DNA of 54,828 nt from a virus (IMGVR_UViG_3300022208_000004:1-54828), one strand, 5' to 3'; shown: positions 12,444-24,948, counted from the stretch's first letter. Notes: generated from the sequence alone by a model not told the origin. Made by a program: numbers and translations.

Positions 12444-13422
12444 ATGAATATCCCCACTTCTCACCTAATGCATAGAACATATCTGCAAATGTGCGCCATT
12501 TATTTTTCCTCATTATTCTAATAATTTCATCCATGTAGTCTCTTAGTTTGCCTTCACTTTTCTTGTTGTTATGAAACAGCGTTTCTATTCCAGAACTTTT
12601 GACCGCCCGATTTATAAAATAGTCCATATGTTCTTTATCTGAACTACTTTTAATTTCATTAAAATTTCTGAGACTTCCAGCATTATAAAGATATGATGAT
12701 TCTTTTGAGGTCAATTCTTCAGTGTTTTTCTTTTTCAACAATGAAAGTATGCTTTGAAAAGCATCAGAATCATAAGATGAATTATAGTCGCGTCCACTAT
12801 TTGCTTTTGTTTTTGTATAGGTTTTAAGGAAATTTATTACATCGTCTAATTCTGTTTTGGCTTTAGATTTATTTTGCAAAATCCAGTCATGGTTGTCACT
12901 GTATATCCAATATGGAATACCACTCTTTTTTAGTTCAATAAATGTGCTTAACAATTCTGTTCTATTCTTTGCGAACTTCTCAAATTCTTTCATTCTTTCG
13001 ATGTTGAAAAGAATGTGTATTTCTTCAATATACTTATTGAATTGTTCAATAGTAGGTTTAGGTGAATAAATTCTATCTTCTGCTTCATCATCCTTTTGTC
13101 TGAATGCGATAGTTGTATTTCTACCCCAATAATCTACAGACTTTGCAGAATAACGTTGATTCAGTTTTTCACCGTTTAATTTCATCACAGCCGAAGCCAT
13201 ATCTTCACCAAAATGATAGCCGCCGTATTTCAGTCTGGTAGTAGATAGGTAGTAATAATTTTTCTTTTTACCCCTAAACCTTTCTTCTGAACTCTGACCT
13301 ATATCAGTAGTGAGTTTAATGGAATTCGTTTTTAGAATTTTACCTAGAGAAATGAGTGAGGTCGCATGGTAAACCATACTAGAAGCCATTTCATTTAGAT
13401 ATTGTTTAAAGGTCAGTATCAT
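12433..13422 (-). CDS. Putative capsid-internal protein, ART-like domain
   Basis: Leader MILTFKQYLNE; VYHAT..ILK..IK, YLSTTR, EAEDRI pattern. Confidence 0.55.
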   Translation of the reverse strand: MILTFKQYLNEMASSMVYHATSLISLGKILKTNSIKLTTDIGQSSEERFRGKKKNYYYLSTTRLKYGGYHFGEDMASAVMKLNGEKLNQRYSAKSVDYWGRNTTIAFRQKDDEAEDRIYSPKPTIEQFNKYIEEIHILFNIERMKEFEKFAKNRTELLSTFIELKKSGIPYWIYSDNHDWILQNKSKAKTELDDVINFLKTYTKTKANSGRDYNSSYDSDAFQSILSLLKKKNTEELTSKESSYLYNAGSLRNFNEIKSSSDKEHMDYFINRAVKSSGIETLFHNNKKSEGKLRDYMDEIIRIMRKNKWRTFADMFYALGEKWGYSYDK

Positions 13423-13426
13423 AAAT

Positions 13427-14224
13427 TTATATTTCCTTTAATAGTTCTTTTTTAAATTCTTCTACTTTTAATTGTATGTAACCATAGAATCGTTTGAGAA
13501 ATTTTTTCTGAACATCTCCATTCCATGATCTAAATATAGGACTTTCTTTTACAAATATAGTGAAAAAATTATAGGTTTTATTTTCATCGGCCTTGCCTAA
13601 CCAATCTTTTCCAGCCTTCATTATAAAAGCTAATTTGGCTTCTGGTTTTAATTTATTTAGTATATTATCTATTTTAAATATAATCTGTTGAGCATAAGCA
13701 TTATACTCTTTATCTGAAGATATGTAATCGGTTATATCACCAGATTTTGCTAGTTCTAGTGTTCCAGATTTAAAAAAGTCTTCTTTCCATCTTTTAGAGT
13801 CTAGGAAATGAATGAATTCATGTAGGAATGTTTCTTTATTTTTTTCAAATAGTTTTTTCATTTCTTTCATATTTTCTATACTCACCACATAATTCTCTGG
13901 TAAGCAGTATAGTCTTATTACTCTACCATTTTTCAATGGTTCTATTAAACCTTTTATGGTTATATTCTCATTTGATACAACTTTTTGTAAAGTAACGGCA
14001 ATATTATCATCCTTAAACATAGCCAATCCCCTTTTAACATTATTGAAAGGTATAGCTATACCAACGGCTTTTCCGTCACTCTTGACAAGAGTAGAGACTT
14101 CCAGGAGACTTTTTTTACTGTTAAATAGACCATTCAATCTATCAAAGACCTTTAAAGCAATATCTCTAGCTACTTTATCTGATTGAGCATCTTCAACCAA
14201 GAATTGTTTAAAGGTCAGTATCAT
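13427..14224 (-). CDS. Putative capsid-internal zincin-like metallopeptidase
   Basis: Leader MILTFKQFLVE; FLHEFIHFLD (HExxH) and downstream EYNAY. Confidence 0.65.
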   Translation of the reverse strand: MILTFKQFLVEDAQSDKVARDIALKVFDRLNGLFNSKKSLLEVSTLVKSDGKAVGIAIPFNNVKRGLAMFKDDNIAVTLQKVVSNENITIKGLIEPLKNGRVIRLYCLPENYVVSIENMKEMKKLFEKNKETFLHEFIHFLDSKRWKEDFFKSGTLELAKSGDITDYISSDKEYNAYAQQIIFKIDNILNKLKPEAKLAFIMKAGKDWLGKADENKTYNFFTIFVKESPIFRSWNGDVQKKFLKRFYGYIQLKVEEFKKELLKEI

Positions 14225-14225
14225 A

Positions 14226-14573
14226 TTACAATTGCCAATCGGATTTTAATTTTGCGGATTTTCTCGCAAAGGCTCTGGCATAGGCATCCCTATAAACTTC
14301 TTTTACAGACGTATCCCAGGGCCTTGAAATTTCCATAAGGTTGTCAAAAATATCATCTACAAGCATATTTACCAATCTTTTAACTGATTGGTTTTCATCG
14401 GGATTACCTTCATCATCATATACCTTCATAATAACATCTCCTGTTTTTAAGGCATATGTTTTTAAGGCATTAAACAAAGTTTGCTTTGTTGCGCTGGAAA
14501 TAGAACCCCTTACGTTTGTAATAGGTGTGCTACGGGGTTGTATTGTTTTTTCAATTAATAATTTATAGTCCAT
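14226..14573 (-). CDS. Hypothetical, putative capsid-internal protein
   Basis: Leader MDYKLLIE; tightly coupled to neighbouring genes. Confidence 0.55.
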   Translation of the reverse strand: MDYKLLIEKTIQPRSTPITNVRGSISSATKQTLFNALKTYALKTGDVIMKVYDDEGNPDENQSVKRLVNMLVDDIFDNLMEISRPWDTSVKEVYRDAYARAFARKSAKLKSDWQL

Positions 14574-14577
14574 ATTT

Positions 14578-23151: not shown

Positions 23152-23161
23152 GCTTCCTCAA

Positions 23162-23527
23162 TTATTTAAGATTATCATATTCGCCGTTTTTGATTCTTTC
23201 TTCTACATCAACAGCCAACTCTTTTGATACAGCGTCCCTAACTTTTCCAGGAAATAATTCCTTGGCATATTCTACGTTTTTATACATCTCTTTGGCGTAT
23301 TCCTTGGCACCATTATCAACAAGATTTCTCATTCCCTTAATAGCAGCCTGTTTATCAAAACTACCATTTTCAATTTTCTTCTTATAGTTTTTCACGATAG
23401 GAATATATTGTTGTTTGTATAGATTTGAATTATTATCAATATACAGTCTCAATTCATTTTCAGGGTCGTCCAACTTTTCAACACCCTCTGAAAGCAATCC
23501 TAATAATATGTTTCTGAAATTACTCAT
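23162..23527 (-). CDS. Conserved phage hypothetical, putative capsid-internal protein
   Basis: Likely start 23527 (GGAG RBS); leader MSNFRNILLGLLSE; EL.LYI.N...LY....PI.KN..KK...G.FD motif. Confidence 0.6.
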   Translation of the reverse strand: MSNFRNILLGLLSEGVEKLDDPENELRLYIDNNSNLYKQQYIPIVKNYKKKIENGSFDKQAAIKGMRNLVDNGAKEYAKEMYKNVEYAKELFPGKVRDAVSKELAVDVEERIKNGEYDNLK

Positions 23528-24071
23528 TCTGTTCTCCATTATCTATGAGTCTATATTTTAACAGTGGTTTTCCATTAATAAGAATATCACCCTTTTCGTT
23601 CTTATCTATTGTTTTGACCACTATTCGTTTATTTTTAAAACGCCCGCCTAAAATAGTATCTCCTATATTTATAGGAATATCTATATTTTCTTTTAATTCA
23701 TTCCTAGAACCTTTTGCCACCATTTCAACCTTGTTTGATTGAATTGCCTTATCCGTGACTGCTACAACATCATTTAGTGTTAATTTGGCTTTCCAACCAT
23801 CAGCATCATCGTATTTTATTTTGACCAAAACATTATTATTTCCAGGTTCAGCATATTGTAAATTTGGAGTTGCTGAAGCGTGAATTCTTTCTTTATGAAT
23901 AAACTTTCCAGAATTCACTCCGTTTTCATATTCTTTCATTGACATTACACGATAAAGGTAATCTGGCTTTTTTCCATTAGCCAAACGTGGTACTATTCTA
24001 TCACCAATCATAGGACCTTCAATCAGTCTCAATTTTTCTTCTGCTAAGAATTCCTTGAATGTTTTAATCAT
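23520..24071 (-). CDS. Two-domain putative capsid-internal protein (ART-like domain plus small beta domain)
   Basis: Leader MIKTFKEFLAEE; LYRVMS..EY..G pattern; second domain NIDIPINIGDTILGGRFKNK after ELKE. Confidence 0.55.
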   Translation of the reverse strand: MIKTFKEFLAEEKLRLIEGPMIGDRIVPRLANGKKPDYLYRVMSMKEYENGVNSGKFIHKERIHASATPNLQYAEPGNNNVLVKIKYDDADGWKAKLTLNDVVAVTDKAIQSNKVEMVAKGSRNELKENIDIPINIGDTILGGRFKNKRIVVKTIDKNEKGDILINGKPLLKYRLIDNGEQNE

Positions 24072-24075
24072 ATAG

Positions 24076-24948
24076 TTAATTGACGTTCTTATACTTTGTT
24101 ATTTTTATGAATTCGTCTACCTCTGTTTTACTAGCCTTTTTTCCATTGATATAAAGACTATTATCATAGGCAGTTTTAACTACATATAGATTTCGCTTAC
24201 CTAGAACTTTTTTGAGTTTATCTATTTTACTTATTGACGCCGCATTAGAACTACCTTCCGCTGGAATAAAGACAATATGATTTAGACTATCTGTTATATC
24301 TAACCTGAATCTATTTTTTTTATCAACATTTACTTTTAGATTTTTCTCTATATTATCATGTAAAACACCAGCACTATTCCAAAAATATAAATCATTATTT
24401 TTGTCTTGAAATCCGCCTATCATATCATCCTTATCACTACCTATAAACGTAACTAATTCATGAAAATTTTTAGGATTCTTTAATATATCTATACCAAGTG
24501 TTCTTCCAGAAAAACTTGTAATTGAAGTCTTGAAAGTTTCTTCTGCTAAGAATTCCTTGAAGGTCATTATTCTGGATTCTTTCAAATCTTCTTTATTCAA
24601 CGTAGCATAAGCCTTGTAGACTTCTTTGTTTTGCTTAACATAGTAAATCTTGTTTTTTACACCATTGGCCGCAAACATATCTCTTAAACCGTCTACCATA
24701 TCAGACACGGCCTTAACATGATATACCCTGTTCATATAGGAATTTCCTAAAAGAACAAGCATATCTTCTTTCTGTTTTATAGCATAAGCAGCCGCCGCTA
24801 TTATAGCAACATTGGCATCACCTGGACTTCTTTTATAATTAAAAATAGCCTTATCTGTATTCTCGACAACACCTATCTTGTCAAGCAATTCTACTTCTCC
24901 AATAAGTCTCTGTTTCCCTACTCTTACGGGTTTGCTAGTTATTTTCAT
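24076..24948 (-). CDS. Fusion protein with an internal capsid-targeting-like leader
   Basis: Internal MTFKEFLAEE at ATG 24567; 25 bp identical to the leader of the next gene. Confidence 0.6.
   Translation of the reverse strand: MKITSKPVRVGKQRLIGEVELLDKIGVVENTDKAIFNYKRSPGDANVAIIAAAAYAIKQKEDMLVLLGNSYMNRVYHVKAVSDMVDGLRDMFAANGVKNKIYYVKQNKEVYKAYATLNKEDLKESRIMTFKEFLAEETFKTSITSFSGRTLGIDILKNPKNFHELVTFIGSDKDDMIGGFQDKNNDLYFWNSAGVLHDNIEKNLKVNVDKKNRFRLDITDSLNHIVFIPAEGSSNAASISKIDKLKKVLGKRNLYVVKTAYDNSLYINGKKASKTEVDEFIKITKYKNVN

Follow-up and report, generated by a model that had tools for sequence, protein, structure and literature searches.

Leader-codon repeats in arrays of putatively capsid-tagged genes of an uncultured T4-like virus

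Internal proteins of phage T4 are anti-restriction weapons. In the T4 record, ipIII and ipII both begin with MKTYQEFIAEA and continue into unrelated bodies. The two genes share an exact 47-nucleotide (nt) run covering the leader and the ribosome-binding site (RBS), the copies lie 697 nt apart, which is one gene unit, and a weaker likeness extends upstream of this run into a palindromic element. According to one review, the first ten residues of IPIII are enough for head loading, positions 4 and 7 serving for targeting and positions 8 and 10 directing the processing by gp21 (PMC9026906); elsewhere, Ip1-3 are described as unrelated cargo with only the tag in common (PMC12373910). Here we analyse the viral record IMGVR_UViG_3300022208_000004, called the window below and taken over its whole length of 54,828 bases (estimated completeness 25% of the genome), where short exact repeats coincide with the leader codons of neighbouring accessory genes. 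A first-pass annotation had described these repeats as leader-coding DNA and a possible means of cassette shuffling. The repeat observation itself is the counterpart of an arrangement already known in T4: since ipIII and ipII carry a 47-nt leader repeat, the design is known and the window provides a further example of it.

Shuffling is not new in kind either. Recombination of T-even internal-protein genes via conserved flanking sequence was proposed in 1994 (cited in PMC2839356). The same paper reports that in RB49 and phi1 recombination between short conserved elements flanking ORFans produces deletions and mini-circles, and that T4 recombination needs small homology patches (<50 bp). A narrow literature search found no paper that places the crossover in leader codons.

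The three repeats reported in the first-pass annotation (23, 26 and 25 nt) are present at the positions it gave. Each string occurs exactly twice when the window is read on the plus strand, and none of 100 dinucleotide-preserving shuffles yielded two matches for the strings. All called genes of the window are on the minus strand, and in every pair the copies are the 5' ends or leaders of two adjoining genes:

13401-13423, minus strand: repeat 1, copy a; one base followed by ATG ATA CTG ACC TTT AAA CAA T (MILTFKQ), start of gene 12433-13422
14203-14225, minus strand: repeat 1, copy b; the same 23 nt, start of gene 13427-14224
15410-15435, minus strand: repeat 2, copy a; AAAGGTATAAT followed by ATG AAT TAC AAA GAA (MNYKE), start of gene 15137-15424; the 11 nt before the ATG double as the final codons (K V) and stop codon of gene 15426-15725
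15711-15736, minus strand: repeat 2, copy b; the same 26 nt, start of gene 15426-15725, upstream part intergenic
24035-24059, minus strand: repeat 3, copy a; TTC AAG GAA TTC TTA GCA GAA GAA A (FKEFLAEE), leader of gene 23520-24071 (MIKTFKEFLAEE)
24537-24561, minus strand: repeat 3, copy b; identical 25 nt in IMTFKEFLAEE, the internal leader at Met128 of the open reading frame (ORF) 24076-24948

As had been noticed, each pair encloses exactly one cargo unit, with spacings of 802, 301 and 502 nt for pairs 1, 2 and 3; this is a direct consequence of the copies marking where two neighbouring tandem genes begin. Identity through synonymous positions was also described correctly for all three pairs. 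The statement that two pairs include bases upstream of the ATG holds unevenly: the upstream part is one base in pair 1 and 11 bases in pair 2, and repeat 3 does not contain an ATG. The exact runs are maximal in register (25 nt in pair 3, 23 nt in pair 1), those of pair 2 form part of a 51-nt stretch at 82% identity (repeat family D7), and identity ends abruptly on both sides of the repeats. The window contains eight exact direct repeats of at least 18 nt, three of which are these pairs. Since the remaining five are confined to three structural genes with internal repetition (230-2917, 20031-21233 and 36598-38244), the pairs are the sole long exact repeats common to different genes.

The leader genes of the arrays are as follows:

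11925-12443, minus strand: leader gene (MISNIKTFKQFLNE...), 172 residues, without a family match
12433-13422, minus strand: leader gene (MILTFKQYLNE...), 329 residues, cargo without an assigned function
13427-14224, minus strand: leader gene (MILTFKQFLVE...), 265 residues, bracketed by repeat 1
15137-15424, minus strand: second-type leader gene (MNYKEIINKVLQE...), 95 residues
15426-15725, minus strand: second-type leader gene (MNYKELLEQVLNE...), 99 residues, bracketed by repeat 2
15753-16040, minus strand: second-type leader gene with a GTG start (VKIKELFEKLLEE...), 95 residues; its 5' region is a third D7 copy, 67% identical
16042-16437, minus strand: leader gene (MITFKDFILKE...), 131 residues, matched by PHROG profiles from residue 14
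18269-19339, minus strand: leader gene (MKTFKQFLKE...), 356 residues, J-domain-like cargo
23520-24071, minus strand: leader gene (MIKTFKEFLAEE...), 183 residues; the C-terminal 56 residues are a widespread conserved module
24076-24948, minus strand: two-module ORF of 290 residues with an internal leader at Met128

Seven genes of the window carry the TFK-type leader of about ten residues (M-x-T-F-K-Q/E-F-L-x-E). It starts at the first Met in five of the seven, at ORF residue 7 in 11925-12443 and at Met128 in ORF 24076-24948. Several small genes are headed by a second leader type (MNYKELLxxxLxE, VKIKELFEKLLEE, MGKIELLFQSLLEE), which may be a second class of capsid tag. Genes with this second type start on the minus strand at 14573, 15424, 15725, 16040, 19678, 23151 and 53940. 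Beyond the leader the pair partners give blastp E-values of 0.13, 0.079 and 0.14 for pairs 1, 2 and 3, the alignment being confined to the first 13-14 residues in pairs 2 and 3, and an all-against-all blastp comparison of the window's leader genes gives no E-value below 0.005. As far as sequence comparison can tell, the partner proteins are otherwise unrelated and the leader is the sole sequence common to these genes, in agreement with the first-pass reading of an N-terminal leader joining unlike neighbours. Pfam and PHROGs gave almost no match for the cargo proteins.

The explanation we favour, and consider fairly probable, is that the repeats are leader codons of T4-like arrays of capsid-tagged genes, and that in pairs 1 and 3 a leader has been copied between neighbours. 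The repeats are the opening codons of neighbouring genes, to which one pair adds the RBS. The leader would dock the protein on the prohead core, like the capsid targeting sequence (CTS) of T4; the prohead protease would then cut it off after the Glu, and the cargo would be packed and injected with the DNA. Copying between neighbours could proceed by short-patch gene conversion, or by unequal or illegitimate exchange on the arrival of one cargo gene, and may use a T4-type recombination system.

The argument for copying comes from the seven TFK leaders. Among their 21 pairs, in-register exact runs of 25 and 23 nt are found in two adjacent pairs and do not exceed 8 nt in the other 19, so that the long runs fall on two of the three physically adjacent pairs. 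Given identical residues and the codon usage of the window, all codons would be identical with probabilities of 0.0057 (pair 1) and 0.0053 (pair 3). The copies share rare codons (CTG, ACC and GCA, accounting for 6, 15 and 26% of their codon families), and agreement at family-variable residues (I-L at positions 2-3; A-E-E) is limited to the two members of a pair. Since the synonymous sites are identical and this identity is restricted to neighbours, we conclude from the sequences that one of the two leaders in pair 1, and likewise in pair 3, was recently copied from its neighbour. In pair 3 the copy is probably the leader of the downstream gene 23520-24071, because FKEFL(A)E appears native to the upstream cargo family (residues 128-277 of ORF 24076-24948); the part of 23520-24071 adjoining the leader has no homologue.

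Relatives were retrieved with an alignment of homologues of gp15, the tail sheath stabiliser (A1), which gave 20 viral loci, four of them at 37-43% gp15 identity. One relative, L007, gives a further hint of leader copying within genomes: a private leader variant with His at the F/Y position is found in four of its ten leaders and in none of 16 leaders elsewhere, and the cargo behind it is mostly unrelated (one L007 pair of leader genes is homologous over its full length, with 31% identity over 268 residues and E = 1e-28). L007 also has second-type leaders (MNNFKKLIE, MNNYKRLLEQE).

Several observations weigh against the favoured explanation. The case for copying is weaker in pair 2: identity of its five codons has a probability of 0.17, which is unremarkable, and its upstream AAGGTATAA recurs before the genes starting at 38244 and 19678, so this part may be mostly a conserved RBS and junction. 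In the relatives, adjacent leaders are no more alike than distant ones (permutation test, P = 0.55; P = 0.12 with the window included), therefore neighbour copying is not a general rule of the clade, and exact leader runs there reach only 17 and 11 nt. Repeats of 23-26 nt are short for homologous exchange. Among contigs of one sequencing run, which may come from the source sample, one contig was identical to the window over 11500-25190 with no alternative letters or indels; no variant, circle or deletion was seen at the repeats in these contigs, a result that is uninformative either way. Finally, neither the window, a fragment estimated at 25% of its genome, nor the fragmentary records of three other relatives yielded a prohead protease (PF03420).

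The junction motif AAGGTATAA lies at 15426-15436, 15726-15736, 19679-19689 and 38245-38255, 1-3 nt before the ATG of four genes, and in two places it doubles as the final residues (K V) and the stop of the upstream gene.

The full claim of the first-pass annotation goes further than copying and is a special case of the favoured explanation: the repeats would be footprints or substrates of recombination between leaders that recently added or removed the bracketed gene, an incoming ORF thereby acquiring the tag in frame. We regard this as possible, though on the unlikely side. Where tandem genes begin with direct repeats, exchange between these would indeed remove or double exactly one unit in frame, and the RB49 and phi1 deletions and mini-circles (PMC2839356) are a precedent.

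The leader also behaves as a module boundary, which is in line with such exchange. PHROG profiles begin past the leader, from residue 14 in 16042-16437 and from residue 13 in 22810-23151. By sequence similarity, cargo families seem to occur both with and without it: homologues of the J-domain-like cargo of 18269-19339 have the leader MSKTFSELFE in Aeromonas phage avDM6 and are leaderless in RB16, and residues 97-258 of the 13427-14224 product match a leaderless protein of 187 residues in G004 (a search for homologues of 13427-14224 recovered, at near length, only the protein itself). An exhaustive profile search with ORF 24076-24948 found 40 proteins. Its residues 18-116 match stand-alone leaderless proteins of about 98 residues, and residues 128-277 match stand-alone proteins of 150-165 residues that open with the leader (MKTFKEFLLE, MLSFKEFLAE, MIRFKEFLAE, MLYSSFKEFLTE or MKSFKELVEM). 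The 290-residue ORF thus looks like two modules joined exactly at the leader, and protein P0023 fuses the same N-terminal module of about 98 residues to a different leader-cargo. The junction carries a TAATG out of frame, which is compatible with the fusion of two genes by a small indel, and an independent assembly, maybe of the same data, has the identical sequence at the fused ORF.

Two small modules of this region are widespread. The module of about 98 residues (24568-24948 in the window, with a core around PGNSYMN.VYHI) is found as a stand-alone protein in many metagenomic phages. A 56-residue stretch at 23520-23697 (residues 126-183 of the 23520-24071 product) is 65-86% identical to more than 100 proteins, where it is N-terminal, internal or C-terminal in many architectures, whereas no match of the phage core proteins exceeds 45%; the stretch looks like a small, very conserved module that has been widely shuffled.

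Gain and loss of cargo are apparent over long times as well. In L006 gp14 abuts gp15; L007 has two small genes between them and about nine leader genes after gp15; L008 has at least four leader genes before gp15; L009 (record G004) has two before gp15 and a second cluster about 35 kb away; the window has 12 genes between gp14 and gp15. In total, around gp15 and elsewhere, 10 leaders were counted in L007, four in L008 and seven or more in L009/G004. The leader pattern gave 1, 0, 6, 3 and 7 matches in five records and none in reversed-pattern controls. Only two of the 22 accessory genes at 11925-25530 have a homologue in the five relatives' loci (blastp E <= 0.01; the loci are partial samples, in which a missing match does not establish absence), so gene content is far from constant; 16042-16437 is 49% identical, including the leader, to a G004 gene at another locus. 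Among these distant relatives (gp15 37-43%) the number and identity of tagged genes vary and the flanking core is kept. Judging by these comparisons, the arrays appear to turn over almost wholly over long times while the leader persists, as in the T-even internal-protein loci.

On the other side, short-patch gene conversion alone explains the same repeat pattern with no gain or loss. Since the nearest gp15 relative is 45% identical, the breakpoints cannot be mapped. A search that took in repeats 1 and 3 found neither exact string on any other contig of the viral collection. The only joint seen in the contigs (21701 to 25441, in one contig, with a 20-nt side) is weak and unrelated to the repeats, and the bracketed genes are ordinary in base composition, their overall GC content and that of third codon positions showing nothing distinctive. 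The recombination reading of the first-pass annotation is borne out in part: pairs 1 and 3 exceed what selection on the peptide alone would give and are confined to neighbours, and cargo has been gained and lost over evolution.

A bolder form of this idea, which we find rather doubtful, is that crossovers take place in the leader codons themselves and not in intergenic elements, making up an in-frame cassette system that would instantly tag any landing ORF for capsid loading. Neighbouring leaders would then drive deletions, duplications and swaps of one unit, and the fused ORF and the three repeats would be its fresh products.

Whether the leader is a capsid tag at all is a separate matter. 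In the window leader MKTFKQFLKE, residues F4, F7, L8 and E10 correspond to those of T4 MKTYQEFIAE, so that it fits the four functional positions. A T4-type prohead protease gene (gp21, PF03420, 93.6 bits) is present in G004, a relative estimated to be 88% complete. As the leader fits the four mapped positions of T4 in a T4-like lineage with a protease-bearing relative, the arrays probably encode proteins loaded into the phage head, which agrees with the packaging role assigned to the leader in the first-pass annotation. By analogy with T4, we infer gp21-type cleavage of the leader, packing of the cargo and its injection with the DNA. It is improbable, in our view, that the leader is instead an oligomerisation helix, an expression signal or a degradation tag, with repeats unrelated to packaging. 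One leader lies inside an ORF and the window has no protease match, as such an alternative would allow; it does not account for the match to T4 at four functionally mapped positions, nor for the placement of the genes, which are co-oriented with structural genes, embedded among them and presumably expressed late. Unrelated cargo with only the tag in common is also what is described for Ip1-3 of T4 (PMC12373910).

If there had been no recent exchange, selection on the leader peptide and the translation-initiation region, together with codon bias and chance, would have to produce the repeats. The leader peptide is indeed strongly conserved across the clade, and pair 2, with its unremarkable codon identity and an upstream motif shared with two other genes, could be explained in this way. 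Pairs 1 and 3 fit poorly: their identity extends to rare codons, each with a probability of about 0.005, the variable residues match solely within pairs, and 19 of 21 leader pairs share no more than 8 nt. Selection without exchange is thus disfavoured for these two pairs and very unlikely as a general account.

Least probable of all is that the pairs are old tandem duplicates whose bodies diverged past recognition with the leader held constant: the tandem position and the one paralogous L007 pair would suit it, but undetectably diverged bodies are incompatible with untouched synonymous leader sites unless a later homogenisation of the leader is assumed (which amounts to the favoured explanation), lengths differ (329 vs 265 and 183 vs 163 residues), homologues of the partners belong to different families, and blastp found no homology along the neighbouring bodies.

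The arrays lie between core genes which follow the T4-type order by PHROG and Pfam matches (gp14-like, gp15, small terminase, large terminase):

25546-26166, minus strand: gp14-like head completion protein (PHROG 'head closure Hc2')
17373-18269, minus strand: gp15 tail sheath stabiliser (family match)
14578-15081, minus strand: small terminase subunit, gp16-like (weak PHROG match; homologues in L008 and L009)
11380-11934 and 8199-10259, minus strand: T4-type large terminase gp17 in two pieces (PHROG and Pfam matches)
10235-11422, minus strand: endonuclease-like ORF of 395 residues between the large-terminase pieces

Identity of gp15 to cultured phages does not exceed 32% (2,053 matching phage records), and the closest of 5.8 billion proteins searched is 45% identical to it. 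No match was obtained when 11900-26200 was compared by megablast with 50,697 phage records, or when gp15 served as a single-protein query against viral contigs and metagenome contigs. By its gene order and protein similarities, the window appears to be a fragment of a deep-branching T4-like myovirus. Two accessory arrays sit between its gp14-like, gp15, gp16 and gp17 genes.

Several features of these flanks deserve mention. The C-terminus of the ORF 10235-11422 product is weakly similar to a restriction-endonuclease fold (PF18741, below the cut-off), and a 38%-identical counterpart is found in L008 within a likewise fragmented terminase; the G004 large terminase is a single uninterrupted protein of 649 residues. 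The first large-terminase piece (11380-11934) ends with CLGDSVIK..., which we take to resemble the start of an intein. By position only, ORFs 5615-8137 and 5026-5598 occupy the places of the T4 sheath and tube genes. Three paralogues of about 185 residues (39826-40380, 40380-40925 and the tube-position ORF 5026-5598; E down to 8e-24) suggest duplicated tube-like genes. The block 19681-22791 between gp14 and gp15, absent in L006, encodes a Gp80 fibre family protein (PF23140, 22378-22791), a protein of 374 residues (phrog_13925) and a Ser/Ala-rich protein of 400 residues with six 60-nt tandem repeats (20582-21017).

Three described systems can be set beside this locus. Integron gene cassettes likewise form an array of exchangeable single-gene units with a short common boundary; in the window the boundary lies within the coding region and supplies a peptide tag, not a promoter, and neither an integrase nor an attC-like inverted-repeat site was seen (there is no exact inverted repeat of at least 18 nt in the window).

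The intergenic elements of RB49 and phi1 known as PeSLs (Arbiol et al. 2010, PMC2839356) are closer. They too are short repeats on either side of individual accessory ORFs, in the hyperplastic regions of T4-type genomes, and exchange between neighbouring copies would remove or add exactly one ORF. PeSLs are intergenic and carry a promoter and a stem-loop, whereas the window repeat consists of coding sequence, the leader codons, sometimes together with the RBS; mini-circles and deletions have been demonstrated for PeSLs, and the window repeats are known from sequence. Regulatory cassettes of the PeSL type were looked for in the window and rejected. Spacers are 0-27 nt, save one of 55 nt, and promoter-like and terminator-like sites are at the shuffle background (70 vs 59.6 +/- 8.1 and 8 vs 6.0 +/- 2.6); the T4 late-promoter motif TATAAATA is not enriched (9 seen vs 11.2 expected). 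The PeSL mechanism is inapplicable as such because there are no promoter and stem-loop cassettes between the genes. The leader is thereby left as the only common sequence, which does not prove that it is used.

If the tag reading is true, an uncultured relative of T4 packs an unusually large and fast-changing set of injected proteins, and its cargo proteins are candidates for new anti-defence functions. The repeats offer concrete sites for asking how kits of injected proteins are rebuilt without the intergenic promoter cassettes of T-even phages.

The closest likeness is with T4 IPII and IPIII and their CTS. In both systems an N-terminal tag of about ten residues has the same pattern ending in I/L-x-E, the cargo is unrelated, and tandem neighbours share exact leader DNA (47 nt including the RBS in T4, 23-26 nt in the window). 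The two polymorphic internal-protein loci of T-even phages also differ in content between related phages. The differences from T4 are the great distance of the lineage, given the low gp15 identity to cultured phages, the larger number of tagged genes (at least seven of one type in 14 kb, plus a second leader type), the location of the arrays inside the structural module, between gp14, gp15, gp16 and gp17, and the presence of one leader inside a fused ORF. The window genes also abut with no promoter or stem-loop spacers, and their likeness ends within the leader. Overall, we see here the known T4 design extended to a distant lineage and not a new mechanism.

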